Source: an uncultured SAR86 cluster bacterium
GTDB lineage: Bacteria > Pseudomonadota > Gammaproteobacteria > Magnimaribacterales > AG-339-G14
Length of the DNA: 64,000 nt
Direction of reading: 5' to 3'
Assembly (NCBI GenBank): GCA_902627595.1
Contig: CACOJO010000004.1
Span: 27,632-91,631, forward strand
The position numbers were made by a program, and so were the translations under genes. Shown here one piece after another: positions 4,442 through 48,881 of this stretch. Each line of letters begins with the position of its first letter. Positions within the stretch are counted from its first letter, which is position 1. The notes under the pieces are model-generated. The model ran no database searches. It saw nothing but the letters and a program-made list of their open reading frames with translations, and was not told where the DNA came from.

Positions 4442-4483
4442 TCAATTAATTCTCCATAAAAACCTAGATAGTTAAAATAAGTT

Positions 4484-5662
4484 ATGAAAAAAGTAGTATT
4501 AGCTTACTCCGGTGGCTTGGATACATCCGTAATTCTTAAGTGGTTGCAAGAAGAAAAAAACTTAGATGTTATTACTTATACGGCAGATTTAGGCCAAGGA
4601 GACATTTCAGATGACCTTGAAGAAAAGGCAAAAAGTCTTGGGGCAAGTAAAGTTATAGTTGAAGATCTCACCGAGGAATTTATTTCAGAATATGTTTTTC
4701 CAATGTTTAGATGTAACACTATTTTTGAAGGTGAATATTTACTTGGAACTGCTATTGCAAGACCTCTAATTGCTAAGAAGCTTGTCGAAATAGGCATACA
4801 AGAAGGTACGGATATTATTTGTCATGGAGCAACAGGTAAGGGAAATGATCAAATAAGATTTGAAATAGGTGCTCATGCTTTAAATCCATCTATAGAAGTG
4901 ATAGCTCCTTGGAGAGACTGGGATATGGTATCGAGAACAGATCTCATGAATTACTGTAAAAATCATCAAATACCTATGCCTGCATCTAAAGCAGAAGAGC
5001 CACCTTTTTCCATGGATGAAAATTTACTTCATATTTCTTACGAGGGAGGTGTTTTAGAAGATTTAAATAATACTCCACCAGAAGACATGTGGTTGAATAC
5101 CAAATCACTGGAAGATGCTTCCGAGAAGTCTGAAGAAATATCTATTGAGTTTTTAAAAGGTGATCCTATAGCTTTAAATGGAAAGAAACTGTCACCTGCT
5201 AAGTTATTTAAAGAATTGAATTCTCTTGGTGGAAAACACGGTATAGGAAGAATTGATATTGTTGAGTCAAGAGTAACTGGTATGAAATCTAGAGGTTGTT
5301 ATGAAACTCCAGGAGGAACTATCCTATTGAAAGCTAGAAGAGCTATGGAGTCGCTGTGTTTATCTGGTCAAGAAATTAAAAATAAAGACAAATTTATACC
5401 TGATTATGCTGCCTTAATTTATGAGGGCTTATGGTGGAGTAATAAAAGAGTTTCTCTGCAAAATGAAATTGATTTAGTATCAAAAAAAGTGAATGGCAAA
5501 ATTATCCTCAAACTATACAAAGGAAACATCATATCAATTGCTAAAGAAAGCCCTAATTCTTTGTACAATGAAAATAAAGTAAGCTTTGAAGAAGAAGGCG
5601 GATTTTCTAATGAGGATATGAAATCACATATCAAGAAAAATATATTGGACTTCGATATTTAA
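4484..5662 (+). CDS. argG: Argininosuccinate synthase
   Basis: AYSGGLDTS PP-loop, GATGKGNDQIRFE, 392 aa. Confidence 0.9.
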   Translation: MKKVVLAYSGGLDTSVILKWLQEEKNLDVITYTADLGQGDISDDLEEKAKSLGASKVIVEDLTEEFISEYVFPMFRCNTIFEGEYLLGTAIARPLIAKKLVEIGIQEGTDIICHGATGKGNDQIRFEIGAHALNPSIEVIAPWRDWDMVSRTDLMNYCKNHQIPMPASKAEEPPFSMDENLLHISYEGGVLEDLNNTPPEDMWLNTKSLEDASEKSEEISIEFLKGDPIALNGKKLSPAKLFKELNSLGGKHGIGRIDIVESRVTGMKSRGCYETPGGTILLKARRAMESLCLSGQEIKNKDKFIPDYAALIYEGLWWSNKRVSLQNEIDLVSKKVNGKIILKLYKGNIISIAKESPNSLYNENKVSFEEEGGFSNEDMKSHIKKNILDFDI

Positions 5663-34432: not shown

Positions 34433-35565
34433 CTCAGAAGATATGTAGCTATATAAAGACATTGAAGATATTATTTCTATCTATTTTTTTAGTATCTTGT
34501 TCTATCGGTACTCACTTTAAAACTACGGAAGTTAGATCTTTTAAGGGAGTGGTTATTCCTGAATTATCAAAAGAACCAATATTGATTGAAAATATTTCAA
34601 AGAATTTGATTACAAACGAATCTAGGAGGGCGCCTTTAAATCTTCCTCTATCTCTTTTAAATTATGAACCTACCTCTTATAAAGTCGGTAATGGAGATGT
34701 GCTTTTTATTTACGTTTACGGAGAAACTGAAAGACTATCTGCATCTTTAGCGAGAGGAGCTGCTATAAATCCAGTTTTTCAGAAAAAAGTTAGAGATGAC
34801 GGTACAATTTTTTATCCTAATGCAGGAGTAATTGATGTTAAAGGTAAATCAATAGAAGAGATTAGATTAATTCTTACTGACAGATTATCTAATGTGTTAA
34901 ATAATCCTCAGGTTGATGTCTCTGTTTCTGAATTTAATTCTCAAAGAATTGTTGTTTCAGGAAACTTTAATACTACTGGAACAATTCCAATTACTTTAAA
35001 TCCAGTTACTTTGAATGAGGTTATAGCTAATGCTAATCCTTTTGGATCTAATGGTACATTTTCAAATGGAGACCTTACTTCTTTAAAACTTTCACGAGAT
35101 GGAGTTACATATGACATTGATTTTGAATATCTATCGAGGAACTCATTAATTCAAAATTATATTTATCTCAAAGACAAAGATGCTATTTACTTACCTGATA
35201 ATTCTCTAACACAAGTTCATGTTTTAGGAGAAGCAAATGCACCTACATCAATAACTTTAAGAAGAAAAAATATTTCCCTATCTCACGCTTTGGCAACATC
35301 TCAAGGACTAAATCAATCAACTTCGAGAGGAAAAGAAGTTTATATATTTAGACCTAAGGATTTTGAAGGCAAACCAAGAATTTTTAAATCAAATATTTCC
35401 TCTCCTACTGGCTACTTACTAGCAAGTGAATTTTTACTTCAAGCAGAAGACATTGTATTCATTGGAACAGCAGGAGTTACTTCTTGGTCTAGATTTATTA
35501 GTCAGCTTCTTCCATTTACTAACTTTATTAATTCTGCCGAAGATACGGATTTAATTACAAATTAG
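34429..35565 (+). CDS. Wza-like outer-membrane polysaccharide export lipoprotein
   Basis: Lipobox (LVSCS). Poly_export motif YKVGNGDVLFIYVYG...DGTIFYPNAGVIDVKGKSIEEI...PQVDVSV is colinear with E. coli Wza as recalled. Confidence 0.8.
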   Translation: MTQKICSYIKTLKILFLSIFLVSCSIGTHFKTTEVRSFKGVVIPELSKEPILIENISKNLITNESRRAPLNLPLSLLNYEPTSYKVGNGDVLFIYVYGETERLSASLARGAAINPVFQKKVRDDGTIFYPNAGVIDVKGKSIEEIRLILTDRLSNVLNNPQVDVSVSEFNSQRIVVSGNFNTTGTIPITLNPVTLNEVIANANPFGSNGTFSNGDLTSLKLSRDGVTYDIDFEYLSRNSLIQNYIYLKDKDAIYLPDNSLTQVHVLGEANAPTSITLRRKNISLSHALATSQGLNQSTSRGKEVYIFRPKDFEGKPRIFKSNISSPTGYLLASEFLLQAEDIVFIGTAGVTSWSRFISQLLPFTNFINSAEDTDLITN

Positions 35566-35571
35566 AAAAAT

Positions 35572-36327
35572 TTGATAAAACTATTATTTTTTTTATTATT
35601 TTTTTCTGAATTAGTATTTTCAAATTTAACTATCGAAGATTTAGATTTTTATAGAAAATCATCAAATCCTCAATCAATTTCTATAGTTTCATCAGGTACT
35701 AACTATTGCAAAAACTATTTTAGTTCTAATAAGTCCATTAACGTAAGCTCAAAAAACACTTTTAAAAATTCTTTTTCATGTAAATATTCTCTAAAAAGGA
35801 ATAGATTTTATGTTTTTATGGTTGCCCAAACAAAAAACCAAGAAAAAACAATACGAGAGAACTGTTTAGATGTTTTGAGTAAATGGCCTGAAATAATGGA
35901 TCATATGGATGAAACATTTTTTGATAATAAAAAATTATATTTGGAAGGTTTTTTTGTAGAAAATATTTTCAATAACCAAATATTAAGCTTTTCAAATATT
36001 TATGCTCAAGATGAGTTGGAGAAGAAAAATCTTATAAATCAGTTAATTCTCGACAAAAAATCATCGTTTTCTTCCAATGATGAAGAAAATAATGAACTAG
36101 TTAAAAAAGAAATCTTACGTTTAGAAAAAATATATAAAAAAATAATAGAAAATAAAATTCCAGATCTTCACAAAATAATAAAGCTTGAATTGGATAAAAT
36201 CACAAGATATAAAATTTTCATTAATGACTTAAATAGATTTAAATCATATAGTTGTAATTGGAAACCTGGCAAAGGGCTTGATCCTTACATAAAAAAAGAA
36301 AAATTTATTGAGTTCGAAAATATCTAG
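35572..36327 (+). CDS. Secreted protein, unknown function (K/N/I/F-rich)
   Basis: TTG start and N-terminal signal-like segment (LLFFLLFFSELVFS). No motif recognised. Lowest-GC stretch I spot-checked. Confidence 0.4.
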   Translation: MIKLLFFLLFFSELVFSNLTIEDLDFYRKSSNPQSISIVSSGTNYCKNYFSSNKSINVSSKNTFKNSFSCKYSLKRNRFYVFMVAQTKNQEKTIRENCLDVLSKWPEIMDHMDETFFDNKKLYLEGFFVENIFNNQILSFSNIYAQDELEKKNLINQLILDKKSSFSSNDEENNELVKKEILRLEKIYKKIIENKIPDLHKIIKLELDKITRYKIFINDLNRFKSYSCNWKPGKGLDPYIKKEKFIEFENI

Positions 36328-36344: not shown

Positions 36345-37298
36345 ATGGGAAATATTGTAGAAGCAAATAATATAAATATTTGGTACGAAGAATTTGGAGA
36401 TAAAAATAAAGAAACAATCCTTCTTATTATGGGAGCCAATGCGAATTGTATGCAATGGGATCAGGATTTTATTGACCAACTAGTTTCAAATGATTTTCAT
36501 GTAGTTAGGTTTGATAATAGAGATGTTGGCAAAACTACATGGTTTGGAAAAGAACCTACGTTTAATAAGCTCTTAAAATTTCTTCCAAATTTTCTTTTGA
36601 AAATGATTGTTAATAGTATTTTTGGCTTGGCTGTTGATAAAAATGGAAGATTTAAGTTTAGTGAATCTACCTCAATAGAATACGATTTGTCTGATATGGC
36701 TAAAGATGCAGTTTCATTAATGGAGGCTCTAAAAATTGATAAAGCTCATATCATAGGAGCTTCAATGGGTGGAATGATTACCCAAATCATTGCATTAGAT
36801 TATCCAGAGAGAGTGTTAAGCATTACTCCCATAATGACTTCCCCTGGAATACATAATGATTCATTATCTGGACCTACTGAAGAATTGCTTGAGGCAATGA
36901 AAAAGTCATTTGTATATAACCTTAAAGGCAGAATAGAAGACGGGGTTGTTGAAATTTACCGACAACTTACTGGCTCACGGTTTCCTTTTAACGAACAAGA
37001 TTTTCGAGAAAAGTTAAAGCCAGTTATTGCGCATGGAAATAATCCTTTTGCTCTTCATGGAGCCGCAGTTGGTGCGAGTCCAGACAGAACAAGTCGACTT
37101 CATGAAATTAAAGTTCCTGCTTTAATTATTCACGGAACTGAAGATGCTATCCTTCCACTCGACCATGGTATTGCCGTTGCAGATGGCATAACAGATTCAA
37201 AAAGAATGATTATGGAGGGAGTAGGGCATGAAATTCCTGAAGAGTTATTACCTGAAATAATTAACGAAATTGTAGAGAATATTAGAAGAGTTTCTTGA
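36345..37298 (+). CDS. Alpha/beta-fold hydrolase (Ser nucleophile)
   Basis: GASMGG nucleophile elbow, HGTEDAILP, GHEIPEE. Confidence 0.7.
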   Translation: MGNIVEANNINIWYEEFGDKNKETILLIMGANANCMQWDQDFIDQLVSNDFHVVRFDNRDVGKTTWFGKEPTFNKLLKFLPNFLLKMIVNSIFGLAVDKNGRFKFSESTSIEYDLSDMAKDAVSLMEALKIDKAHIIGASMGGMITQIIALDYPERVLSITPIMTSPGIHNDSLSGPTEELLEAMKKSFVYNLKGRIEDGVVEIYRQLTGSRFPFNEQDFREKLKPVIAHGNNPFALHGAAVGASPDRTSRLHEIKVPALIIHGTEDAILPLDHGIAVADGITDSKRMIMEGVGHEIPEELLPEIINEIVENIRRVS

Positions 37299-37300
37299 AA

Positions 37301-37876
37301 TTAAATTAAATATTTTTTTGTATTTAAGGTAAAAATCTCTTTTATTTGTTTTTCATTTAAGCTCTGAACAACACTAAGTCTTAAGAAAAACATAAAAGAC
37401 ATACATTCAAATATAATTTCTCTTTCGGATTTCCTTTTTTCTTGAATCTCAGGAAGAATGGAATAAACAAAATTTCTTAAAATTTTATTCCAAGAAAACA
37501 TATTTTTTCTTAAATTTTTGTCTCTCCAGATATTGCGAAGATTCCAACGGATAATATTTTGATTTTTTACATAGAGTTTAATAAGAATAGAACAAACATT
37601 TTCAATTCTACTTTCTAAGTTATCCGTTTTATTTATTAAAGAAAAGGCACTGGTAAATTCTTCACCAAGTTTTTGATCTAAACTTTCTTGAAGTGTTTCT
37701 TGATCTTTGAAATGACGAAAAATTGTTCTAGTTCCTATATTTGCTTCTTTAGCAATAGAATTAAAGGACATGTTATCTATGTTGCCTTTACGGGCAATTT
37801 TTATAGCAGTGTTCAAAATGTGATCTGAAGTAGACTCACTTCTTAATTTTCGTCCGTCTTTTTTTAGCTTATCCAT
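37301..37876 (-). CDS. TetR family transcriptional regulator
   Basis: N-terminal HTH (ILNTAIKIARKGNIDNMSFNSIAKEANIGTRTIFRHFKDQETL), 191 aa. Divergent from the dehalogenase gene. Confidence 0.75.
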   Translation of the reverse strand: MDKLKKDGRKLRSESTSDHILNTAIKIARKGNIDNMSFNSIAKEANIGTRTIFRHFKDQETLQESLDQKLGEEFTSAFSLINKTDNLESRIENVCSILIKLYVKNQNIIRWNLRNIWRDKNLRKNMFSWNKILRNFVYSILPEIQEKRKSEREIIFECMSFMFFLRLSVVQSLNEKQIKEIFTLNTKKYLI

Positions 37877-37881
37877 ATGAA

Positions 37882-37936
37882 TATGACAGTAACGCTGTCA
37901 TAAGTTATTGACACACATACTGTCATATTCTATATT
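37882..37936 (+). promoter_or_regulatory. Candidate TetR operator pair overlapping a near-consensus promoter (TTGACA-N17-TATATT)
   Basis: Perfect inverted repeat TATGACAG-N5-CTGTCATA at 37882-37902. Second copy TGACA-N7-TGTCA(TA) at 37909-37927 overlaps the -35 TTGACA (37908-37913). The -10 TATATT is at 37931-37936, with AAGGAGGA Shine-Dalgarno before the GTG at 37970. Confidence 0.5.
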
Positions 37937-37969
37937 CAATTTATATTTTTAAGCAAGGAGGAATAGTAA

Positions 37970-39070
37970 GTGAAGTCAATTCTAGGTTTCTTCATTTTCT
38001 TAATAGTTAATTTTTCTATCTCCATAAATATTTATGGAGATGAGATTAAAGAGGGCGTTTTAAGAACTCCAGATGAAAGATTTGAAAATCTGAAAGATTA
38101 TCCTTTTAAACCCAATTATGTGATGATTGATGGTTTGAGAATTCATTATCTTGATGAAGGCCCAAGAGATGCAGATCCAATATTTCTGCTTCATGGCGAA
38201 CCTGCATGGAGTTATTTATTTAGAAAAATGATACCTGTATTAACTGCGCAAGGACATAGAGTAATTGTTCCAGACTGTGTTGGTTTTGGTAAATCAGATA
38301 AGTTTATTTCAAAATATGACTATTCTTACAAGCATCATGTTGAGGTTATGAAGGAATTAGTCCAAAAACTTAATCTCCAGAATGCAACTTTCTTTGGTCA
38401 AGATTGGGGTGGTTTAGTAGGTTTAAGAGTAGTCGCTGAGTTACCGGATCGCTTTGACAACGTTGTCGTATCCAATACAGGAATGGTTGCTCGATCTGGC
38501 ATATCAGCATGGCTATTTGAAAAATTTGTTCAATTCAGGGTTTGGTGGATTGGACCGATCACTTTCGAAGAGTTAATGTCCATAGCCAAAGAAGCATTGA
38601 CAGTTGAAAATCCTTCTGCATCTACAGGAATTTCAATGTTTAGTAATTGGATAGCATATTCATATTATGCAGATGATATGAATATTCCTGGAATCATTAA
38701 AAATTTTGGCGGAATAGATTTATCAGAAGAGGAAGCTTATGCTTATGAAGCTCCTTATCCCTCGGGTTTATATAAAGCAGGAGCCCATGTTTGGCCTTAT
38801 CTTATTCCAACTCAACTCCCAGAAAATGAAAAACTTTGGAAAGAAGTTTATGAAAAATGGGATAAACCTTTCCTAGTAGCTTTTGGAGAAAATGAAAGAA
38901 TTACTCTTCCAATGAAGGCTGTTTTTCTAGAACGTATTCCAAACCCAACTGTTATAACTTTAGGAGGCGCAAGTCATTTTGTGCAGGAAGAAGTTGGTCC
39001 CGAGCTCGCGCAAATCATTAGTGATTTTATTCAAGGAAAGCCAGTAGCGGATTTACCAGCTAAAAATTGA
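37970..39070 (+). CDS. Haloalkane dehalogenase family protein, HLD-I (DhlA-like), with an N-terminal signal peptide
   Basis: The GTG start is followed by a hydrophobic leader (MKSILGFFIFLIVNFSISINIYG). RTPDERFENLKDYPFKPNY, HGEPAWSYLF, GFGKSDK, FFGQDWGG and GASHFVQEE are colinear with DhlA as recalled. Confidence 0.8.
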   Translation: MKSILGFFIFLIVNFSISINIYGDEIKEGVLRTPDERFENLKDYPFKPNYVMIDGLRIHYLDEGPRDADPIFLLHGEPAWSYLFRKMIPVLTAQGHRVIVPDCVGFGKSDKFISKYDYSYKHHVEVMKELVQKLNLQNATFFGQDWGGLVGLRVVAELPDRFDNVVVSNTGMVARSGISAWLFEKFVQFRVWWIGPITFEELMSIAKEALTVENPSASTGISMFSNWIAYSYYADDMNIPGIIKNFGGIDLSEEEAYAYEAPYPSGLYKAGAHVWPYLIPTQLPENEKLWKEVYEKWDKPFLVAFGENERITLPMKAVFLERIPNPTVITLGGASHFVQEEVGPELAQIISDFIQGKPVADLPAKN

Positions 39071-39173
39071 AAATTTCTGTAAATAGCTAAAGGATTAACA
39101 AGCAGGATCTCCTTTCTTTAATAAAAGTGATATAAATTTGGTAAGATAATTTTTCGATTTTAGGAGTATTCTC

Positions 39174-40199
39174 ATGACAGACTCAATAAAGCTTATAGGG
39201 AATGTAGCATCACCATATACCAGGAAGATGATTGCTTATCTAAGATATAAGAGAATTCCATATGAAGTAATTTGGGGTCAACCAGAAGATGTTCTCAAGA
39301 AAATGAACATTGAACCTCCAAAACCTATTCTTTTGCCAGTATTTATATTGGATCGAGATGGTCAAGCTACTGCAGTTACCGACTCAACTCCTCTTATAAG
39401 AGAGTTTGAAGAAAAATATCCTGATAGATCAGTGCTCCCCAAGGATCCAGCTCTAAACTTTATAAATTTTATCCTTGAGGACTTTGGCGATGAATGGTGT
39501 ACAAAATTTATGTTCCACTATAGATGGCATTTTGATGAGGATGCAGATAATGCAGGAACTATTTTACCTTTGGGCATAAACAGTACTTTGGAAGACGATG
39601 AGTTGGCATTTTTTAAAGAACATTTTGCAAAAAGACAAATAGACAGATTATGGGTAGTAGGCTCTAACAATGATACTGCTGAGTTTATAGATAAAAGCTA
39701 CAAAAATGTACTTTCAATTTTTGAAGAACATTTTAAAAAGTATCCATTTCTCCTCGGAAACTTTCCATCTTCATGCGATTTTGCAGTTTATGGGCAATTT
39801 ACTCAATTAGTAGGATTTGATCCTACTCCCAGAAGAATAGCACATGAAATTTCTCCTAGAACAGTTGCATATGTAAACACACTTGATGATAGAGGAGGTT
39901 TAGATTATATCGAGGAAGATATCTCTTTAGATTTCCTTAGCGACTCAATACACGATCTTTTTAAGGAGTTAGCCGTCTCTTATGTGCCAACTCTAATAGA
40001 AAATCATAAAGCTATCAAAGAAGGTGAAAAAGAATGGTCTGTTGACCTGGCAGGTTATCCTTGGAAGCAGAAATCATTTCCTTATCAAGCAAAGTGTCTT
40101 GATTGGATAAGAGATGAATTCAAGGGCCTGGATAATGAAAATCAAAAAAAAGTTTTAGGTTTTTTAGCCTCAACCGATTGTCAATCTTTAGTGGAGTAA
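39174..40199 (+). CDS. Glutathione S-transferase-like protein
   Basis: N-terminal thioredoxin-like GST motif LIGNVASPYTRKMIAYLRYKRIPYE (compare E. coli YibF LVGSYTSPFVRK). The 341-aa length is longer than canonical GSTs. Confidence 0.55.
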   Translation: MTDSIKLIGNVASPYTRKMIAYLRYKRIPYEVIWGQPEDVLKKMNIEPPKPILLPVFILDRDGQATAVTDSTPLIREFEEKYPDRSVLPKDPALNFINFILEDFGDEWCTKFMFHYRWHFDEDADNAGTILPLGINSTLEDDELAFFKEHFAKRQIDRLWVVGSNNDTAEFIDKSYKNVLSIFEEHFKKYPFLLGNFPSSCDFAVYGQFTQLVGFDPTPRRIAHEISPRTVAYVNTLDDRGGLDYIEEDISLDFLSDSIHDLFKELAVSYVPTLIENHKAIKEGEKEWSVDLAGYPWKQKSFPYQAKCLDWIRDEFKGLDNENQKKVLGFLASTDCQSLVE

Positions 40200-40201
40200 A
40201 T

Positions 40202-41131
40202 ATGAATAGAATAACTGAAATGTTGGGTTGCAAATATCCGATTATTCAATCACCAATGGGCTGGATTGCTAGGAGTCAACTCGCTTCAGCTGTATCAAAT
40301 GCTGGAGGTTTTGGGATTATTGAAACCTCATCGGGAGAAGTAGATCAATGTAAAGACGAAATAAGAAAAATGGCTTCTCTTACGAATAGTCCATTTGGAG
40401 TAAATCTTCCAATTCTATTTCTTTCAGATGAAAGTATGTTAGAAGTGGTAATTGAAGAAAACGTTAAATTTGTTACAACTTCTGCTGGAGATCCAGCTAA
40501 ATATATTCATAAGCTCAAGGAAGCAGATATTAAAGTATTTCATGCTGTTCCAAGCCTAGCAGGAGCTCTTAAGGCTGTAGATGCAGGTGTAGATGGCCTA
40601 GTTGTAGAAGGAACAGAAGGAGGAGGTTTTAAAAGTCCTGAAGAAGTAGGTTTGCATGTCTTAATTCAATCTATTCGTAAGCACTCTGATTTACCTATTG
40701 TAGCTGCTGGAGGTATCGTCGATGGTATTGGTATGGCAGCGGCTTTCGCAGCAGGTGCTGATGGTATTCAAATGGGAACAAGATTTGTTTCATCTTTAGA
40801 AAGTCCAGTTCATGAAAATTTCAAAGACGCAATTGTAAGTGGTTCTGAACAAGGTACTTACATTCTTAATAAAAAAGCAAAACCATGTATTAGAGCTCTA
40901 AAGACAGAGTTAACTGATAAGATTTATGAGGAAGGGTTAATGGATATGTCTGCTCTTAGCGGAATAAAAGATTTATATTTTGGTGGCGACATGAATGCAG
41001 CGCCTGCTTTAGCAGGTCAGTCTATTGGACTCATAAATGAAGTATTACCAGTAGAACAGATTATCAAACAAACTATGCAAGAATTTAATTCTGTATGTGA
41101 ATCTTTATCCAACTCTAAATTTGAATTATGA
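40202..41131 (+). CDS. Nitronate monooxygenase / NMO-family FMN oxidoreductase (FabK-like fold)
   Basis: YPIIQSPMGWIA, VVEGTEGGGF, AAGGIVDG, GADGIQMGTRF. Start set at the ATG at 40202, which is preceded by GGAG. Confidence 0.75.
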   Translation: MNRITEMLGCKYPIIQSPMGWIARSQLASAVSNAGGFGIIETSSGEVDQCKDEIRKMASLTNSPFGVNLPILFLSDESMLEVVIEENVKFVTTSAGDPAKYIHKLKEADIKVFHAVPSLAGALKAVDAGVDGLVVEGTEGGGFKSPEEVGLHVLIQSIRKHSDLPIVAAGGIVDGIGMAAAFAAGADGIQMGTRFVSSLESPVHENFKDAIVSGSEQGTYILNKKAKPCIRALKTELTDKIYEEGLMDMSALSGIKDLYFGGDMNAAPALAGQSIGLINEVLPVEQIIKQTMQEFNSVCESLSNSKFEL

Positions 41132-42216
41132 AAATTTTAAGAACCCCAGATAGTGCTTTTGAGAATGTAAAAAATTATCCATTCGAGCCAAACTATACAA
41201 CAATACAAACTCACGACGGTTCTGAATTGAGAATTCATCATGTTGATGAAGGACCCAAAGATGGTCCGATTCTATTGGCTATGCATGGTCAACCTGTTTG
41301 GAGTTACTTATACAGTAGAATGATTCCTTTTTTGGTAGATGCAGGAATAAGAGTTATTGCGCCGGATTTACCTGGCTACGGAAAGTCCGATAAACCTGCA
41401 TCCAGAGAAGACTATTCATATCAAAGACAAGTTGATTGGATGACAGACTGGCTTAAAGCTAATGAATTCAAAAATTTAACCTTTTTTGGTCAGGATTGGG
41501 GAGGTCTTATAGGACTGAGAGTAGTAGCGAATGAGCCAGATAGATTTCTCAAGGTCGCAATGGGAAATACAGGCCTACCTTATAACCCTGACACTCCTCA
41601 AGATGTAATTGACAAAGTTAAAGCTTTTAGAGATAGCGATATCAAACTTACTGTGATGTCTATGCAAAAAGAAGTCAGTAAAATGGATGGTAAGAACATT
41701 GCCGATGATAAAACATCTTCCAGTCCAGCACTTAAATTTATGTATTGGCAGAAATTTTGTTGGGACACAGAAGATCTCCCTATTGGTTTTTTGATGTCTA
41801 ACATGATGGAAAAAAATTCCACTCTTAAGACACTTATTTCTTATTTATTTCTTAGACTTGGATTAAGAAAATTATTTCCATTGAATAGAGCAATAGATCA
41901 TGCGTATGAGGCTCCGTTTCCTGACCCATCTTATAAAATGGGTCCAAGAGCCATGCCAAGTCATGTTCCTACAATCCCAGATCAGTCTTTAAGTGCAGTA
42001 AGAGATGCTAGAGAAATATTTAAAAATTGGAATAAACCTTTTTTGAGTGTTTTTGCTGGAGATGATCCAGTAACCAATGGTGCCGAAAGAGATGTTTTGA
42101 ATATGTGTCCTAATGCAAAAAGTGCACCCCAAATAGGAGGAGGGCACTTTTATCAATGGACTCGACCCAAAGAGCTATCTAACTTACTTGCCAATTTTAT
42201 TAAAGAGAACGATTAG
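41128..42216 (+). CDS. Haloalkane dehalogenase family protein, HLD-I (DhlA-like), cytoplasmic
   Basis: MKILRTPDSAFENVKNYPFEPNY, HGQPVWSYLY, GYGKSDK, FFGQDWGG, FAGDDP (Asp aligned to DhlA D260), GGGHFYQW. No signal peptide. 4-nt overlap with the NMO gene. Confidence 0.8.
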   Translation: MKILRTPDSAFENVKNYPFEPNYTTIQTHDGSELRIHHVDEGPKDGPILLAMHGQPVWSYLYSRMIPFLVDAGIRVIAPDLPGYGKSDKPASREDYSYQRQVDWMTDWLKANEFKNLTFFGQDWGGLIGLRVVANEPDRFLKVAMGNTGLPYNPDTPQDVIDKVKAFRDSDIKLTVMSMQKEVSKMDGKNIADDKTSSSPALKFMYWQKFCWDTEDLPIGFLMSNMMEKNSTLKTLISYLFLRLGLRKLFPLNRAIDHAYEAPFPDPSYKMGPRAMPSHVPTIPDQSLSAVRDAREIFKNWNKPFLSVFAGDDPVTNGAERDVLNMCPNAKSAPQIGGGHFYQWTRPKELSNLLANFIKEND

Positions 42217-42218
42217 TT

Positions 42219-42674
42219 GTGTTAGAAATGCTTTTTCCTAAATCTGCAGATAATAATTATTTGGGCTATAAATTTGTTTTCTACGCCTTTATTCCATTCC
42301 TATTATTAATGACCTGGCGTTCTGTAATTCATATGTCTTTCGAAGACTTTGGACTACATGGTATTGCTAATGTGAAAGTATTAACTGGTACTCCTGATCC
42401 AATGCCTCTTATATATGCTTTCTTTTCTGCATGGGGTTTAGTTCAGCTAATATTTTGTGCTTTTGCCTGGATAGTCGTCATAAAATATAAGTCTTTAACA
42501 CCTTTATTAATCCTAGCTTTTTTAGTTGAGTGGTCTGTTAGAGTATTAAATTCCAGTCCAATTGTTAATGATCCGATTTATTCGGACGGAGTTACTCCTG
42601 GAATGGTTTACGCTCCTTATATGACTTTGTTCTTATTTCTTTTATTCGTTTTTTCTTTGATTAAAAAAAATTGA
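42219..42674 (+). CDS. Small membrane protein, unknown function
   Basis: GTG start 3 nt after the HLD-I stop. 151 aa with about 4 hydrophobic segments. No motif recognised. Confidence 0.45.
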   Translation: MLEMLFPKSADNNYLGYKFVFYAFIPFLLLMTWRSVIHMSFEDFGLHGIANVKVLTGTPDPMPLIYAFFSAWGLVQLIFCAFAWIVVIKYKSLTPLLILAFLVEWSVRVLNSSPIVNDPIYSDGVTPGMVYAPYMTLFLFLLFVFSLIKKN

Positions 42675-42739
42675 CCTAATTTGATACAAAACTTCTAATT
42701 TTTTCTTGTAATATTTAATATATATTTTGGGAGAAAATA

Positions 42740-43432
42740 ATGAAAAATATAAAAATATCTTTAATTTTTCTTTTAAGCTCAATATTTTCAATAAATCTTA
42801 GCGCGGTTCCAGAAGGAGCGTTTACGACTCTTATGGTTCAAGCAAAAGATATTGATAAATATGTTAATTTTTTAAAAGAAAATGTCGATTTTGATGATTT
42901 CGGATCTGAACAAGCTGGTTATTGCAAAACCAGAACAGGAGAAAGCTATCAAGGTCAAATGTTTATCTACAATGCTTTTACGAGTGTTGAAAAAGCTATA
43001 GGGTTTATTGAGTTATATGATCCAGCAAGTGCTAATTTTGACCTCAAACAATTAAGAACCATCAAATATTCTTCTGCTTTCAAACCACTTAAGGATTTTG
43101 AAGCTAGAGATGGATACCATAGGCTTTGGAGAGTAAAGTTAAACGATTGGCAGGCTTTTTCAAATTCAATGACGAAACTTCAAAAAGAACTTGATGCTGC
43201 AGGTCACAAAATGATGATTGGTGTATTTGCTCAACTTGGCGGTGGATTTGCTGAAACCGGAATGTTTCATTTAAGAACCATTACCGAAACAGCAGCAGAA
43301 ACTGGAAAAATTATAGATGAGTATTTTAGAGGAGCAGGTTGGGCTGCTACTTGGGATGATGCTCAGCAATACATAGATGAAGAAGTTGAAGAAACTTTTG
43401 AGTATTGTGAGACCATTTATACAAGAAATTAG
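42740..43432 (+). CDS. Secreted protein, unknown function
   Basis: GGGAGAA Shine-Dalgarno. Signal peptide MKNIKISLIFLLSSIFSINLSA. 230 aa. No motif recognised. Confidence 0.5.
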   Translation: MKNIKISLIFLLSSIFSINLSAVPEGAFTTLMVQAKDIDKYVNFLKENVDFDDFGSEQAGYCKTRTGESYQGQMFIYNAFTSVEKAIGFIELYDPASANFDLKQLRTIKYSSAFKPLKDFEARDGYHRLWRVKLNDWQAFSNSMTKLQKELDAAGHKMMIGVFAQLGGGFAETGMFHLRTITETAAETGKIIDEYFRGAGWAATWDDAQQYIDEEVEETFEYCETIYTRN

Positions 43433-43441
43433 AGGTAAGTC

Positions 43442-44173
43442 ATGAAAAATAAAATCATTTATTTATTTCTCACCACTTTATTGTCTTTTAGTCTATTTTC
43501 AAATGAGAATACATTGAGGCCTGGCAGTGGTGTTTATGAATTCCATTTTTTTAACGTAACTAATCCAGCAGGGTTTGTAGCTGCCATTGAGACCTTTGAT
43601 TCTTCTTCTTGTGCAGAGAAATGGCGAAATGAATCTGGAGCAAATGTTGGGCTGTATTCTCGTATGGGAGGAGGGCATTCACATATTATTTTAGTTGCAT
43701 ATGAAAATTATGACATGATGCAAAAAGGGCAAAATATCTTTGCTTCTTGTGCAGCATCTTCAGAAATGAATGTAGTTTTTGATAAAACTTCAGTAAGTGA
43801 AGATTATTATAATTACGTTACCGAGCTAGTTTTAGAGGCTGGTGATTGGCGATTGAATACTGTTTTTTCTAACATTGAAGTTAAGGTTAAAACTGGAAGT
43901 CAAGCATCTTATCTTGAAGCGTACAAACAACTTACAAATTCCACTGCAGATGCTTTTGGGTCATATGGAATAAATAGAGTAGTTTATGGCAATAAGTATG
44001 TATCTCATATGTTGTATAACGGATCTAATTCTATTCAAGAGCTAAACAATGCCTTGGATGAAGTTTATGCTTCAAATGAATTCAAGTCTTTCAATAGAAA
44101 GGTTGGAAATATTAGAAAGTTAGTAAATTCAACACTTGCTCAATTAGTTAAAGCTTATCCTGCTGAAAGATAG
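43442..44173 (+). CDS. Secreted protein, unknown function
   Basis: GAGG Shine-Dalgarno. Signal peptide MKNKIIYLFLTTLLSFSLFS. 243 aa. No motif recognised. Confidence 0.5.
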   Translation: MKNKIIYLFLTTLLSFSLFSNENTLRPGSGVYEFHFFNVTNPAGFVAAIETFDSSSCAEKWRNESGANVGLYSRMGGGHSHIILVAYENYDMMQKGQNIFASCAASSEMNVVFDKTSVSEDYYNYVTELVLEAGDWRLNTVFSNIEVKVKTGSQASYLEAYKQLTNSTADAFGSYGINRVVYGNKYVSHMLYNGSNSIQELNNALDEVYASNEFKSFNRKVGNIRKLVNSTLAQLVKAYPAER

Positions 44174-44180
44174 TTGATTT

Positions 44181-44208
44181 ATAAGCCGCTCGTTTATGAG
44201 CGGCTTAT
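44181..44208 (+). terminator. GC-rich 11-bp perfect hairpin, 8 nt after the stop of the 43442-44173 gene
   Basis: ATAAGCCGCTC-gtttat-GAGCGGCTTAT. No U-tract follows on either strand (an A-run follows on +), so it is a non-canonical terminator or an RNA-stabilising hairpin. Confidence 0.5.
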
Positions 44209-44366
44209 TAACAGAAAAAAAAATTAACTATTTTATACACAGATAAAGTATCTTTATCTATATCTAATTTTCTATTTCAATAATAAGAGGGAAGTAACAA
44301 TAGTGAGTTTTCATTGAATCTAAAGGATATATACATTCGTATAATATATATTATGTTAAATTTAAA

Positions 44367-44918
44367 TTAAGTTAAAATGATTAATAAGGCATAAGAATTA
44401 ATAACAAAAATTGCTGAAATAGCCTGTATATTTCTATCAATTTCAATTTCTTTTCCTAGGAAGCGAATTATTATAGGAGGAACGCCATTTATATCATTGA
44501 ACTCCCCGTCATATAACTTAATAGATGCTGCAGTAGCAAAGAAAGAAAATATCCATAAAAAATTTAATGCAACAACTAGTAATAAATTAAAAAAGGTATC
44601 AAATACCCATAATAAAGATAAGCAAAGTAAGGCAGTAAATATCATTGCATTTACCTGCCAAACTAAATGAAACCTAGCGTGACCTGTCCATAAAGGATTA
44701 GTGGCATGAGACTCATTAAAATCTATTAAAGGAGTTATTATTGCAAAACCCAAGCAAATCATCGTGAGAAGAATTTTTGAAATAAATATATGCGAGTAAT
44801 CAGTAAAAAGGAGGGTATAAAAAGACCACAATATTGTTATCCCAATAATAGTTCCAAACATACTTTGAGCTCTTAACGCAAAGTTAAACGCCCTGCTTCT
44901 TTGTTCTGGATCAAACAT
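44367..44918 (-). CDS. Polytopic membrane protein, unknown function
   Basis: 183 aa with about 5 hydrophobic segments and a conserved-looking NPLWTGHARFHLVWQ loop. No family recognised. Confidence 0.45.
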   Translation of the reverse strand: MFDPEQRSRAFNFALRAQSMFGTIIGITILWSFYTLLFTDYSHIFISKILLTMICLGFAIITPLIDFNESHATNPLWTGHARFHLVWQVNAMIFTALLCLSLLWVFDTFFNLLLVVALNFLWIFSFFATAASIKLYDGEFNDINGVPPIIIRFLGKEIEIDRNIQAISAIFVINSYALLIILT

Positions 44919-44981
44919 TTAATTCTCCTAAATTTTTTCTTTATAAATGATATATTTATTTTCCTTACAGGAGTAATAATA

Positions 44982-45839
44982 ATGGACAAGAAATACAAAG
45001 AGATTTTAGGAAAACAAATGGCTTATTTAGATTCAGGTGTAGGCCAATCAATAGTTTTTTTACACGGTAATCCTGCCTCATCTTTTTTATGGCGAAATAT
45101 CACTCCATATGTAGAGGATATTGGCCGAATAGTTGTTCCAGATTTAATTGGAATGGGCGACTCTGAAAAACTTGAAGGAACAGATAATCCTGATTATCAA
45201 TATCATGGACAATACAAATATCTGTCTACATTACTAGATGAATTAGATTTAGGTGAGGAAATTAATTTAGTAATACATGATTGGGGTTCTGCAATGGGAT
45301 TTCAGTATGCAAGAGAAAATTCAAATAAAATAAAATCGATTACATTTATGGAGGCAATCGTAATGCCACTAACTTGGGATCAATGGCCAGAAAATGCAAG
45401 AAACATTTTTCAACTAATGCGTTCTGATGCAGGAGAAGAAATTGTTCTTGAAAAAAATGTTTTTGTAGAAAGGATTCTTTTGAATGACTCTGCGGATGGT
45501 TTTACCGACGAAGAAAAGGCTGAGTACATTCGACCCTTTAAAAATGCAGGTGAAGATCGTCGCCCTACTCTTACTTGGCCCAGACAAATTCCTGTAGATG
45601 GTTCTCCTCAGGTTGTAATTGATGAAGTAATAAAAAATGGCGAATTTCATAAAGACTCAAATATCCCGAAACTTTTCATTAATGCCGATCCTGGAAGCAT
45701 TCTTGTAGGAGATCAAAGAGAATTTGTTCGAAGCTGGAAAAACTTGAAAGAAGTAACTGTGAAAGGAAACCATTTTATTCAAGAACATTCTCCCAATGAA
45801 ATAGGAGCAGCTATAAAAGATTTCTTAGGTTCGTTGTAA
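44982..45839 (+). CDS. Haloalkane dehalogenase, HLD-II (DhaA/LinB-like)
   Basis: FLHGNPASSFLWRN, PDLIGMGDSEK, VIHDWGSAMGF, MEAIV and GNHFIQEH are colinear with DhaA as recalled (HGNPTSSYLWRN, VIHDWGSALGF, MEFI, HYLQED). Start set at the ATG at 44982 after a CAGGAG Shine-Dalgarno. Confidence 0.85.
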   Translation: MDKKYKEILGKQMAYLDSGVGQSIVFLHGNPASSFLWRNITPYVEDIGRIVVPDLIGMGDSEKLEGTDNPDYQYHGQYKYLSTLLDELDLGEEINLVIHDWGSAMGFQYARENSNKIKSITFMEAIVMPLTWDQWPENARNIFQLMRSDAGEEIVLEKNVFVERILLNDSADGFTDEEKAEYIRPFKNAGEDRRPTLTWPRQIPVDGSPQVVIDEVIKNGEFHKDSNIPKLFINADPGSILVGDQREFVRSWKNLKEVTVKGNHFIQEHSPNEIGAAIKDFLGSL

Positions 45840-45877: not shown

Positions 45878-45914
45878 TAAAAAAAACCCCTTTAAAATTT
45901 AAAGGGGTTTTTTT
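45878..45914. terminator. Bidirectional intrinsic terminator
   Basis: A9-CCCCTTTAAA-a-TTTAAAGGGG-T7. The stem is flanked by an A-run and a T-run, between convergent genes ending at 45839 (+) and 45927 (-). Confidence 0.7.
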
Positions 45915-45926
45915 GAAGATAAGTTA

Positions 45927-48881
45927 TTAATTTGGTGGCGCTATAATAGTTTTTCCATGAATTACCGAGGGATCTGTACTATTTGCACTTGGTAATGTTG
46001 TTGCAGGAACAGTACCAATGGAATTTGCACCGGAAAATAAGTTCTGAATATTATTTGCTGCCGGTAAATCACTCACTGACTTAGAGTAACTTACTCCAGC
46101 AGGAATGCTTCCTAATTTAAGTAAATATTCATCTCCTCTTAGAGCTCTGATTTTTAAGTCATCCCCACCACTTAGGTTAGTAAGAACAGTAGCATCAGGT
46201 ATTACAAATTCATGTATGTATCGGTAACACTGGTTCCATCCACCATCAACATATCTTCCTAAGATTGCGCCTGTACAGGTATTTACTACTCGTCCAGGAA
46301 TATTATGTAGCTCTCCGTAACCTTCAAATTTCAGTTTGAATTTTTTTCCAGCAAGATTTGTGTTTGGAAAGTTATAAGTTATTCCACTTGCAGGGACAGT
46401 AAATAAAACTGATTGCGGTGGGGAGACATTGACATATTGACTAGAAGTATCGTTATACAGTCGATAGTCAGGCATTTGTCTTACTCTGATGTCATACATA
46501 GTCGCAACCGCTCCTTCCCACATTTTGTAGTCACAATAATATGAGGCATTTCCAGTTGCATGAACTGCAGCATCATTTGCTTTAGCTTTGAACTTAACAT
46601 CATAACCCCTTGCGTTACCACCAGAAGTTTCACAAAGAAGAGCTGCTTTATTAGTGTCTGAATTAATCACTGCTCTCATATGAAAAGCCCAGCCAAAATT
46701 ATTGGTATGATTATTTTGATAAGTATGAGGCTTCATGTAATAACGATAATTTTGTAGAGCATCGCCATGCTGTCTAGCATCTACTTTTTGTCCATTTGCA
46801 AGAGAATATTCTATGTAAGTATTACCTGCTGTACCGTCTCTGAGTTTATTGGTTCCAGCAACATTCACAATTGTATATTGAGGAGCATCAGCAACTTTTA
46901 TTCCGCCAATATTATTGTAGTTACCAGCTGCAATATCTGACTCTCCCCCATCTTGGTCACCATTACCATTTGAGTCGTAATAAACTGTGGCTGTCCACCA
47001 GTCTCCAACATTTTTGTAAGGAGTAACGTTTAAAGCACCAGGATTACTTGAATTTTGAACTGCAGTAAAAGCTGCATCAATAGCAGTATTCATATTAGAG
47101 GCATCAAGACATTCTCTTATGCAAAGCAGACCTGTTGCATTGTCGCCAGTATTAGTTATTTCTGTTGCCAACTGATCGATATTTATTCTTTCTTCTGTTC
47201 TTGTTCTAACTTGAGCGGAAGGCGTTGTTGAGTCAGGGTCACCAAAAGCAGCATAAGGAACTGTGTAACTTTGATGAGAGTCAGGATCCCAAAAATGCAT
47301 CCTTCTATTCCAGCCTGAGTCAGTCATTTGAGTTGACCAATTTGCCGCCGTAAATGAGAAAGGATTATCCAATGCAAAAGGCATTATTCTAGCTCCCCAA
47401 TCCATTCCATGAGTTACAGTAAAAGTTACAGTAGAGCCACTAACAGTAATTGTTCCTGAGTACTCAGGACAGTTACCTTGTGCAGCATTACAATTACCGG
47501 CATTCGGAAAATTAAGATTTCCTAGTTTTGTTTGAAAAGTACCACCGTCTCTGAAATTATTTGCATAAAATTGAAAGGAAACTCCGCCAAGTTGGTCTAA
47601 TGAAAGATACTGTCGCGTTCTTTTTACAATTTCATAGTAATTTTTTCTTAAATTATATGAATTGTTATCGCTAGAATTTCTTTTATTTTTAAATATAGTT
47701 GAGTCAGTTACATTTGCCCTATCAGTAGGATTAACATGCACTCCCCAGTAGCTGGCATGAGACCATATTGGAGCAGAAAGTGAACCATTATCAATAGTAT
47801 TTGCTTCCAAAGACATGGAAGGTGTAGTTAAGTCAGCCCTTGAACCGTCTGAATTTTTGTAAGTTCCATATTCATATACCACTCTTTTTGCTGCTGATCT
47901 TCTAGTATCCCAGCAATGTTCACCAGTAATAGTAGCTGCAGTTCCTCCGTCAGTATCAACAAAGCCTCCCCCGTTTTGAGCATTGGTTATAGCCGTTGCT
48001 AGATTAGTTTCAGAGATTGCCGCTCCTTCTGTCCAAAGACCATTACCACCTTGAGAATATTCATTAGCACTAGAAAATTTTTGGCAGTATCTATCTGCAC
48101 CTTCGTTAACCTGTACTTGATGTCTTACAGCATAAGTTGTCATTCCACCGCCGCCAGCAATACGAAGAATTGTTTGCATAAATCCTTGAATATTGTTGGC
48201 ATCAGCCAAGTCTGCAATGATTACCCTATCAGGACCTTGCATACCCGTTTCTCGATATTGGATGGTTGTGTTGTTTACATTTAAATAACCTTGATTTATG
48301 GATATACCAGCTGTGGGAAGTCCTTGTGCGATTTGAATTTGTTTGTTTCTGAGGTCATATCGCATGGTAAAAGTTCCAAAACGATTAGTGCTACTTTTAT
48401 CTGCAGTTACTGTTGTAGATAAGAAAGCGGTTGTTGGAACTATGGTTCCGTTTTGGCCCATCTCTAATTCAATATCCACCCAACCTTTTCCTTGTACTGT
48501 ATTTCCAGAAGTTTCCCCAGTATAAATTCCAGTAGTATATTCAGTAGCGTCAACTGCATTGGTGCCAGTTCCTGCCCCACCGCCACTAGCTGATGAACCT
48601 GTTGCAGATGCTGCTTCAGAAGCTGCATCAGCTCCGCTTGCAGATTCACATTTAGCCTCATCAGTTAAAGCTTTATAAACTCCTTTGTTAACAAAAGTAG
48701 AAAAATTAATACTTTCCATGAAACATAAGAGAAAATTAACTTGGCTCATTGCATCGTTTGCAAGTATGCCTGGCACGTAATAATCTACTTCCGCAGCATC
48801 ATCAGTATAATCATCTGTAAAAGACAAATTACTTATTAATATAAAAGTTAATGTAGTAAAAAAAAGCTTAATTGTTTTCAT
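45927..48881 (-). CDS. Large secreted protein, unknown function (984 aa; Gly/Thr/Asn/Ala-rich, multiple Cys)
   Basis: AAGGAA Shine-Dalgarno. Signal peptide MKTIKLFFTTLTFILISNLSFT. Uninterrupted 2.95-kb ORF. No catalytic or repeat motif recognised. Confidence 0.6.
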   Translation of the reverse strand: MKTIKLFFTTLTFILISNLSFTDDYTDDAAEVDYYVPGILANDAMSQVNFLLCFMESINFSTFVNKGVYKALTDEAKCESASGADAASEAASATGSSASGGGAGTGTNAVDATEYTTGIYTGETSGNTVQGKGWVDIELEMGQNGTIVPTTAFLSTTVTADKSSTNRFGTFTMRYDLRNKQIQIAQGLPTAGISINQGYLNVNNTTIQYRETGMQGPDRVIIADLADANNIQGFMQTILRIAGGGGMTTYAVRHQVQVNEGADRYCQKFSSANEYSQGGNGLWTEGAAISETNLATAITNAQNGGGFVDTDGGTAATITGEHCWDTRRSAAKRVVYEYGTYKNSDGSRADLTTPSMSLEANTIDNGSLSAPIWSHASYWGVHVNPTDRANVTDSTIFKNKRNSSDNNSYNLRKNYYEIVKRTRQYLSLDQLGGVSFQFYANNFRDGGTFQTKLGNLNFPNAGNCNAAQGNCPEYSGTITVSGSTVTFTVTHGMDWGARIMPFALDNPFSFTAANWSTQMTDSGWNRRMHFWDPDSHQSYTVPYAAFGDPDSTTPSAQVRTRTEERINIDQLATEITNTGDNATGLLCIRECLDASNMNTAIDAAFTAVQNSSNPGALNVTPYKNVGDWWTATVYYDSNGNGDQDGGESDIAAGNYNNIGGIKVADAPQYTIVNVAGTNKLRDGTAGNTYIEYSLANGQKVDARQHGDALQNYRYYMKPHTYQNNHTNNFGWAFHMRAVINSDTNKAALLCETSGGNARGYDVKFKAKANDAAVHATGNASYYCDYKMWEGAVATMYDIRVRQMPDYRLYNDTSSQYVNVSPPQSVLFTVPASGITYNFPNTNLAGKKFKLKFEGYGELHNIPGRVVNTCTGAILGRYVDGGWNQCYRYIHEFVIPDATVLTNLSGGDDLKIRALRGDEYLLKLGSIPAGVSYSKSVSDLPAANNIQNLFSGANSIGTVPATTLPSANSTDPSVIHGKTIIAPPN

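Follow-up and report, generated by a model that had tools for sequence, protein, structure and literature searches.

Why does a SAR86 bacterium keep three haloalkane dehalogenase (HLD) genes within a few kilobases of one another, and do these genes belong to a single system? They lie in a 64,000-nt window, the whole stretch of DNA analysed here, from the chromosome of an uncultured SAR86 (Magnimaribacterales) bacterium (GenBank assembly GCA_902627595.1, contig CACOJO010000004.1). An earlier note on this DNA had read positions 37301-45839 as one 8.5-kb, TetR-linked cluster. That description was half right: the core neighborhood around one dehalogenase gene, HLD-I-b, is conserved, but the accessory genes are confined to the closest relatives and the spacing is broken there by variable insertions. 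We favor a TetR-controlled SAR86 island for electrophiles or organohalides, with a core operon in which HLD-I-b would displace halide, and we give this reading an even chance of being correct.

Three dehalogenase homologues

Every open reading frame (ORF) that the note had listed is present where it was placed. Its subfamily assignments, two HLD-I proteins and one HLD-II, hold because the NCBIfam cut-offs are cleared and the best PDB matches are all HLDs. HLD-I-a (37970-39070, + strand, 366 residues) and HLD-I-b (41128-42216, + strand, 362 residues, cytoplasmic) score 317 and 326 bits on NF002043 (cut-off 265). HLD-II (44982-45839, + strand, 285 residues, cytoplasmic, with its ATG at 44982) reaches 354 bits on NF002938 (cut-off 241), and the best non-HLD α/β-hydrolase model yields no more than 78 bits for the three proteins. 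The top structural entries are 6f9o for HLD-I-a (E 4e-75) and HLD-I-b (E 1.7e-80), and 7pw1 for HLD-II (E 6e-106). The same PDB search returns LinB at about 1e-92 and luciferases at E 1e-64 for HLD-II.

The motifs quoted in support of these assignments are likewise found. The HLD-I pair carries HGEP/HGQP, GQDWGG, the cap Trp, and G-x-HF, and HLD-II has HGNP, HDWG, FMEA, and NHFIQE, which are kept in 19 of 19 orthologues. Catalytic pentads were numbered against a DhlA sequence in which D124, W125, W175, D260, and H289 fall at the published positions. The HLD-I-b pentad consists of D123, H340, D313, W124, and W207 and is invariant in 82 sequences, and that of HLD-II comprises D100, H264, E124, N30, and W101. 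For HLD-I-a the residues are D145, H336, E309, W146, and W227. Its Asp nucleophile and both Trp are invariant in 13 of 13 sequences and its His is retained in 12, the thirteenth (L006) being a shortened ORF with a gap at the His column. The nucleophilic Asp and catalytic His are thus retained on alignment across orthologues, in keeping with the note. As judged from their sequences, all three ORFs are HLD-family proteins with a complete set of predicted catalytic and halide-binding residues. HLD-I-a and HLD-I-b are only 36% identical, and the two HLD-I copies are therefore old paralogues rather than the product of a recent duplication.

A conserved core operon

Relatives of HLD-I-b are encoded in at least 285 species genomes of a species-representative scan. 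The family extends to thousands of metagenome clusters, and a TARA metagenome scaffold carries the exact HLD-I-b sequence. The comparison set consists of the 80 best loci of that scan (HLD-I-b at least 70% identical) plus four metagenome contigs. Nearly all of the 80 derive from SAR86 single-amplified or metagenome-assembled genomes, SAR86E and the cultured HIMB1674 among them. Neighbors were counted in the 56 loci whose flanks each extend 6 kb or more, a gene being scored when it lies within 6 kb of HLD-I-b.

The gene for GST341, a 341-residue glutathione S-transferase (GST)-like protein (39174-40199, + strand), accompanies HLD-I-b in the same orientation in 56 of 56 loci, a figure to be tempered because the flank filter left out a solitary HLD-I-b lineage; in 73 of the 84 loci the two genes are within 1.5 kb. 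TM151, a four-helix membrane protein (42219-42674, + strand), is present in 51 of the 56 loci, and a FabK-like FMN flavoprotein of the nitronate monooxygenase (NMO) family (40202-41131, + strand) in 40. Within the window these genes are tightly packed. The gap between GST341 and the flavoprotein gene is 2 nt, the latter overlaps HLD-I-b by the 4 nt that the note had reported (41128-41131), and TM151 follows HLD-I-b after another 2 nt. The true start of the flavoprotein is most likely ATG 40202; the mechanical ORF opens at TTG 40178.

Several gene orders are seen: GST-NMO-HLD-TM151, NMO-GST-HLD-...-TM151, GST-HLD-NMO-TM151, and HLD-...-GST-TM151. The cultured Magnimaribacter mokuoloeensis HIMB1674 (L063) has GST-HLD-I-b-NMO-TM151. 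Linkage that is kept through all of these orders is a classic signature of functional coupling. The conserved core is GST341, the flavoprotein, HLD-I-b, and TM151, together with a divergent TetR gene that lies near HLD-I-b in 28 of the 56 loci and is always divergent.

Other families recur around this core. DUF1330 proteins are found in 45 of the 56 loci, hydrolases of the metallo-β-lactamase (MBL) fold in 33, sulfatases in 26, and DUF2855 proteins in 22; additional GSTs, a short-chain dehydrogenase/reductase (SDR), and an acyl-CoA dehydrogenase also recur beside HLD-I-b in SAR86. In most SAR86 lineages a DUF1330 gene is a neighbor of HLD-I-b and GST341. The window contains no DUF1330 gene, and its clade has the secreted proteins sec230 and sec243 after TM151 instead. 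The sulfatases belong to PF00884 (L014:16954-19405, L036:14834-16540, and further examples in L083, L084, and L085), and GST341 homologues outside SAR86 are also accompanied by sulfatases and an MBL-fold hydrolase. This recurrence hints at substrates with both halide and sulfate leaving groups.

Regulation

The TetR-family regulator (37301-37876, - strand; TetR_N E 4.4e-7) is divergent from the operon. The intergenic DNA between TetR and HLD-I-a contains the strongest promoter-like site of the region, a sigma-70-like TTGACA-17-TATATT (37908-37936, + strand) with an 11/12 match. A perfect palindrome, TATGACAG-N5-CTGTCATA, lies just upstream of it at 37882-37902, and a third CTGTCATA half-site (37920-37927) falls between the -35 and -10 hexamers; together these elements form a candidate TetR operator (37882-37927). 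A Shine-Dalgarno sequence, AAGGAGG (37955-37961, + strand), precedes the GTG at 37970.

Close relatives keep the positions of the palindrome and half-site, and in 37 related loci the leading gene of the operon has a divergent TetR gene ahead of it. L036, L040, and L014 have similar TTGACAT/ATGTCAA palindromes in the corresponding stretch between genes. The operator-like site of SAR86E is a perfect 16-nt inverted repeat, and the palindromes of distant SAR86 genomes share a TGACA(G/T) half-site. The arrangement suggests that TetR is a divergent repressor with a candidate palindromic operator, to which it is predicted to bind.

Between 38000 and 44173 there is no terminator-like site except for a weak hairpin within HLD-I-b. 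Because HLD-I-a lies downstream of the TetR operator/promoter and ahead of GST341 with no terminator-like break, it is probably co-transcribed with the core. TM183, a multi-pass membrane protein (44367-44918, - strand), and HLD-II are a divergent pair apart from these genes, with a terminator of their own, a strong bidirectional intrinsic-terminator-like hairpin (45880-45914) that closes the HLD-II unit.

Partner proteins of the core

GST341 gives weak Pfam matches to GST_N_3 (E 1e-10) and GST_C (E 2.4e-4), and its AlphaFold (AF2) model is of high quality (pLDDT 92, pTM 0.92). The closest solved fold is that of StyI (9qd3; E 1.7e-7, TM 0.76 over the target, 21% identity). There are 246 PDB fold matches at E ≤0.001, and all 50 of those listed have the GST fold, including a few non-GST proteins (SspA, FzlA, mPGES-2). 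According to the model, GST341 is a member of the cytosolic GST superfamily, with a thioredoxin-like N-domain and an all-helical C-domain, and it carries a C-terminal extension. The motif S13-P-Y-T-R-K, found in 72 of 74 orthologues, is located at the start of predicted helix 14-26 (helix 1), and S13 appears to stand where the catalytic Ser would be. The sole notable NCBIfam GST match is NF049950 IsoI, at 43.6 bits against a cut-off of 300 (E 2.5e-11); the likeness to IsoI and StyI is a resemblance only, equivalog level not being reached.

The flavoprotein matches PF03060 (E 5e-57) and aligns over its full length with FabK of C. difficile (7l00, E 9e-62), with F opposite H. It scores 265 bits on TIGR03151, for which the FabK equivalog cut-off is 453, and in 56 of 56 orthologues its 'EGTEGGGF' motif has Phe in place of the His in 'EGGGH' of FabK. 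PDB entries named nitronate monooxygenase (4q4k, 4qis) match at E 1e-29 or worse. The protein therefore fits neither the canonical FabK type nor that of canonical nitronate monooxygenases. The note had tied the GST-like and NMO-family genes to the dehalogenases. Their linkage stands, given the 2-4 nt spacing or overlap and the ubiquity of GST341, but a nitronate-monooxygenase role is unlikely since the flavoprotein is FabK-like with the active-site His changed to Phe. In 23 of the 56 loci (e.g., L036:18791-19759 and L063:15282-16253) another NMO-family paralogue, with about 35% identity to the flavoprotein linked to HLD-I-b, is encoded a few kilobases downstream; a motif search found no 'EGTEGGGF'-type sequence in it.

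Homologues of TM151 number 186; every one comes from a marine metagenome or a SAR86-type genome, and no Pfam domain is recognized in any of them. Its invariant polar residues are R34, H38, H47, N51, E104, R108, and Y121. The AF2 four-helix model is of moderate confidence (pTM 0.73), and a Foldseek search of the PDB with it gives no significant match (best E 1.1). Its size, four helices, and GST-rich context made a MAPEG membrane GST a candidate identity, which was rejected: there is no Pfam match at E 5 and no MAPEG protein among the 39 Foldseek PDB matches.

Unusual features of the HLD-I proteins

Both HLD-I proteins exceed every solved HLD-I enzyme (297-325 residues) by 50-60 residues. When HMMER aligns them with solved HLDs, the alignment is interrupted in the cap domain, over ~174-223 in HLD-I-a and ~154-250 in HLD-I-b (residue numbers), and relative to DhlA the cap insertion of HLD-I-a amounts to ~26 residues. 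Many further 'long-cap' HLD-I sequences were retrieved in a representative-library search, and none is among the solved enzymes.

The canonical acid after strand 7 is Asp; in HLD-I-a this residue is Glu309, in 13 of 13 sequences. HMMER aligns the 'GENERIT' segment of HLD-I-a with 'SDSDPVT' of 6f9o and 'SDADPIT' of 5esr, which places E309 opposite the acid Asp. E309 also aligns with D313 of HLD-I-b, the invariant Asp of a 'DP' pair, and the neighboring D312 varies. A MAFFT alignment had paired D260 of DhlA with Asn308 of HLD-I-a; we attribute this to a one-residue register error, as the 6f9o/5esr HMMER alignments, Asp313, and DhlA-like sequences with 'GTKDRLLG' agree on E309 as the acid. Because a carboxylate is retained in place of the Asp, we regard HLD-I-a as a variant-triad homologue of the HLD-I enzymes and do not count it among the canonical ones.

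HLD-I-a also has a conserved hydrophobic leader (residues 1-23), and its GTG start is backed by the strong AAGGAGG Shine-Dalgarno sequence. Its nearest relatives outside SAR86 (P0362, P0365, P0369, P0373) possess canonical signal peptides with an AHA/EE site at the homologous position, and these exported proteins retain the Asp acid. There is therefore a clade of exported HLD-I proteins, and the change to Glu is specific to SAR86. HLD-I-a itself is predicted to be exported.

Accessory genes and flanking DNA

The complete arrangement of the window recurs only in the closest relatives (L002-L012, L038). HLD-II is near HLD-I-b in 14 of the 56 loci, sec230 in 12, HLD-I-a in 11, sec243 in 10, and TM183 in 9. 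HLD-I-a, sec230, sec243, TM183, and the adjacent HLD-II are accessory genes of those closest relatives. HLD-II is encoded within ~7 kb of HLD-I-b in three separate arrangements. The L014 copy of HLD-II shares 8 nt with a sulfatase gene, and that of L053 is directly followed by a canonical DUF1330 gene (4369-4686, Pfam E 2e-22).

The note had counted five envelope proteins of unassigned function; there are only four (42219-42674, 42740-43432, 43442-44173, and 44367-44918 on the - strand), the first being TM151. The secreted proteins sec230 (42740-43432, + strand; leader ending ...LSA/VPEG, with cleavage between) and sec243 (43442-44173, + strand) have no match in Pfam, NCBIfam, or PDB sequence searches, and TM183 has no significant family match. 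The idea that sec230 and sec243 are paralogues or divergent DUF1330 proteins was discarded (BLASTP E 7, hhalign probability <3%, library searches empty). The gap at 44174-44366 contains no ORF of at least 25 residues. Three added genes, for proteins of 245, 489, and 303 residues, occupy its equivalent in one relative (L003:13100-16265).

Upstream of the regulator lies abh317 (36345-37298, + strand; Abhydrolase_1 E 2.9e-19), an α/β-hydrolase with a Ser nucleophile in a GASMGG motif. It is macrolide-esterase-like (EstT/EstX family), with 222 bits on NF052610 against a cut-off of 420. The gene is convergent with TetR and is found in 11 of the 56 loci; its conservation together with TetR and HLD-I-a is limited to the closest relatives. 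Directly upstream, a block of low GC (0.28) at 32522-36327 holds Wzc-like (636 residues) and Wza-like (378 residues) ORFs and a 251-residue secreted protein; the Wzc and Wza labels come from reading the translations alone, and in relatives the block is 36-88% identical or absent. On the other side, 45927-48881 (- strand) encodes a 984-residue secreted protein with stretches rich in Gly, Ala, Thr, and Asn. It has no Pfam match even at E 5, and clear orthologues (58-95% identity) are found in a few closest relatives only (L003, L008, L038).

Origin of the cluster as a mobile element or island was considered and rejected, since its flanks are housekeeping genes and its GC content is only mildly elevated. 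An α/β-hydrolase in L085 was likewise rejected as an HLD-I-b orthologue: at 25% identity, with HGWP/HDKG motifs, it is epoxide-hydrolase-like.

Interpretation and alternatives

For an organohalide island, we infer the enzymatic activities, the order of steps, and the roles of the unassigned proteins as follows. A hydrophobic alkyl electrophile with a halide leaving group would relieve TetR repression. The Asp nucleophile of HLD-I-b would then displace the halide by SN2, with the Trp-Trp pair binding the departing ion, and the resulting ester intermediate would be hydrolysed by water activated by His/Asp. GST341 and the flavoprotein may take care of co-substrates or of reactive products, for instance epoxides derived from halohydrins or unsaturated carbonyls (enones), and TM151 may act at the membrane in uptake or in some enzymatic step. 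The gains of the subclade, namely an exported HLD-I-a with an Asp-His-Glu triad heading the operon, two secreted proteins, TM183, and a separately transcribed HLD-II, would widen the substrate range, HLD-I-a adding periplasmic dehalogenation. That an HLD of another subfamily recurs near HLD-I-b in three arrangements points to halide chemistry as the shared theme. Organohalides would then be the substrates, algal bromo- and iodo-alkanes perhaps among them, and there may be strong selection for organohalide turnover, as the note proposed. The gene group may help to degrade natural marine halocarbons.

A number of observations weigh against this interpretation. Open seawater contains volatile haloalkanes at picomolar to nanomolar concentrations, little to justify a dedicated catabolic operon in a genome so streamlined. 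HLD-I-a has Glu for Asp and the flavoprotein lacks the FabK/NMO His, and either change may affect activity. The cap insertions of both HLD-I proteins are absent from characterized HLDs, and so their substrates may differ from model haloalkanes. The spacer between sec243 and TM183/HLD-II is an insertion hot-spot, with 1-4 kb of extra DNA in relatives.

The neighborhood itself also argues for caution. A common HLD-I-b lineage is solitary (P0024; L047, L048, L055, L069, L086-88). P0024 is 73% identical to HLD-I-b, occurs in 292 index blocks, and has NnrS, amidohydrolase, and DUF305 neighbors; contigs of this lineage have ~39-47% GC and are binned variously as SAR86, a Poseidoniia archaeon, Terriglobia, and Chloroflexi. 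Conversely, marine Gammaproteobacteria outside SAR86 encode GST341 homologues (~55% identity) together with a sulfatase, an MBL protein, a YfcG-like GST, DUF1330, TetR, and NMO, and these islands are without an HLD. In L085 the GST341 island has an epoxide-hydrolase-like Asp-nucleophile hydrolase instead. Because homologous islands free of HLD exist outside SAR86, the GST-centered island is older and broader than its association with HLD, and it is not intrinsically about halides.

These last observations lead to the alternative that survives best, in which the island serves glutathione-dependent detoxification or catabolism of lipids and electrophiles (epoxides, sulfate esters, sulfated or halogenated algal lipids), the HLD label is only a family name, and the HLDs are interchangeable leaving-group hydrolases. 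Such a role would accommodate the HLD-free gene sets and the epoxide-hydrolase-like enzyme in the analogous place in L085, as well as the sulfatases (26/56), MBL proteins (33/56), DUF2855, extra GSTs, SDR, and acyl-CoA dehydrogenase beside HLD-I-b. It would also suit the 8-nt overlap of HLD-II with a sulfatase gene in L014, the epoxide GST StyI as the closest fold to GST341, and the large cap insertions of both HLD-I proteins. The many GSTs of SAR86 have been read as handling hydrophobic compounds (PMC11582366). What the proposal struggles with is the dehalogenases themselves: invariant Trp-Trp or Asn-Trp pairs and full triads in all three HLD groups are hard to explain without halide chemistry, HLD models give 317-354 bits against at most 78 for other α/β-hydrolase models, and two HLD subfamilies are repeatedly co-localized. 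We consider it somewhat unlikely.

It could also be that only the four-gene core is functional, with HLD-I-a, sec230, sec243, TM183, and HLD-II as independent neighbors and the three-dehalogenase cluster a mere juxtaposition. The accessory genes are indeed present in only 9-14 of the 56 loci, relatives have 1-4 kb insertions between sec243 and TM183/HLD-II, the TM183/HLD-II divergent pair has its own terminator, the HLD-I copies are just 36% identical, and the flanks are ordinary housekeeping genes. Against this, HLD-I-a is probably co-transcribed with the core, and HLD-II lies ~7 kb or less from HLD-I-b in three independent arrangements. On balance, juxtaposition seems distinctly improbable.

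Very improbable, finally, is that one or more of the homologues is catalytically dead or repurposed in the manner of Renilla luciferase, an HLD-II protein: HLD-I-a would be the prime candidate, with E309 in 13 of 13 sequences where exported non-SAR86 relatives keep Asp, and luciferases and engineered bifunctional enzymes are among the PDB matches of HLD-II, but the HLD-I-a carboxylate is kept and invariant with the other pentad residues intact, HLD-II enzymes naturally use a Glu acid (from a different position), and HLD-II matches genuine dehalogenases (E 1e-106 to 1e-92) much better than luciferases (E 1e-64).

Significance

Marine halocarbons (such as CHBr3, CH2Br2, CH3I, and dihaloethanes) influence ozone chemistry in the atmosphere, and how they are consumed biologically in seawater is poorly defined. 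The organohalide reading can be taken further, to a lineage-wide, glutathione-linked SAR86 operon acting on halogenated or sulfated algal lipids and volatile bromo- and iodo-alkanes, extended in some ecotypes by a periplasmic HLD-I and by HLD-II. On this account SAR86, among the most abundant heterotrophs of the surface ocean, would be a major, unrecognized halocarbon sink; we regard so broad a claim as unlikely, and offer it tentatively. Were the HLDs inactive on halides, the island would still be a conserved SAR86 module for xenobiotics or lipids. The hypothesis is directly testable because a SAR86 isolate with the core operon (HIMB1674, L063) is in culture.

HLDs are already known from marine bacteria. 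A published survey finds that among marine dehalogenase genes those of the haloalkane-type hydrolytic class predominate, above all in the upper ocean (PMC12660952); it is silent on carrier organisms and genetic context. The high GST copy number of SAR86 has been published in a study that never mentions dehalogenases (PMC11582366). The literature searched contains nothing specific on SAR86 with a dehalogenase or on HLD-GST operons, and the note likewise knew of no described system with this composition. In the same literature we found no description of the SAR86 HLD-GST-flavoprotein-TM151 operon, of long-cap HLD-I proteins, or of an exported HLD-I with an Asp-His-Glu triad. The present analysis assigns a very abundant family of HLD-I proteins to SAR86 and shows the gene within a regulated operon that is conserved and includes a specific GST. 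For enzymologists it provides three uncharacterized variants: the long-cap HLD-I, the exported Asp-His-Glu HLD-I, and the conserved proximity of HLD genes to those for DUF1330 proteins, sulfatases, and GSTs.

Comparison with known systems

In the 1,2-dihaloethane routes of Xanthobacter and Mycobacterium, an HLD is followed by alcohol and aldehyde dehydrogenases, or by a halohydrin dehalogenase, and then by a haloacid dehalogenase. The SAR86 cluster resembles these pathways in the proposed use of an HLD-I as the first, halide-releasing step and in the need to detoxify reactive intermediates downstream. It differs in that a GST, a FabK-like flavoprotein, and a membrane protein replace the downstream enzymes. 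No pyrroloquinoline quinone-dependent alcohol dehydrogenase, chloroacetaldehyde dehydrogenase, HAD-type haloacid dehalogenase, or halohydrin dehalogenase was seen in the cluster or in the annotated parts of the window flanks (20.8-32.5 and 49.5-64 kb).

The isoprene and styrene epoxide pathways (IsoI, StyI, a dehydrogenase, and a second GST) offer another parallel. GST341 resembles StyI and IsoI, and SAR86 islands feature extra GSTs and an SDR, which recall IsoH and IsoJ of the isoprene pathway. Compared with IsoI and StyI, however, GST341 has ~21% identity and is ~100 residues longer, with a C-terminal extension. Unlike these pathways, the SAR86 cluster is without monooxygenase or CoA-transferase genes, and the partner is an HLD rather than an epoxide-forming oxygenase. 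The flavoprotein is, like members of the FabK/nitronate monooxygenase family (PF03060), a TIM-barrel FMN protein; it departs from FabK in falling below the equivalog cut-off and in having Phe for the 'EGGGH' His.

Among the dehalogenases, the HLD-I proteins of the window match solved HLD-I structures at E 1e-67 to 1e-80 and DhlA of Xanthobacter autotrophicus at 1e-44 to 1e-52. The solved entries 6f9o, 5esr, and 4mj3 are DpcA, DccA, and DmrA. With these enzymes and DhlA, the window proteins share the α/β core, the GQDWGG elbow, the cap Trp (W175 of DhlA), the His, and an acid after strand 7, as well as the N-terminal RTPD...YPF...NY and HG(E/Q)P elements. They are unlike the solved HLD-I enzymes in their cap insertions. 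HLD-I-a is further set apart by its predicted export and Glu acid, and HLD-I-b by HGQP in place of HGEP.

HLD-II is far more conventional. It is collinear over its full length with the solved HLD-II enzymes (7pw1, 4brz/4c6h, 2qvb, and LinB 1cv2; E 6e-106 to 1e-92), has the same pentad, and is of typical length at 285 residues. Of these entries, 4brz/4c6h is DmxA (PMC6920932) and 2qvb was named 'Haloalkane dehalogenase 3' by its depositors. Nothing in HLD-II is structurally distinctive; what is new is only where it is found, next to TM183 and close to a pair of HLD-I genes in a SAR86 genome.

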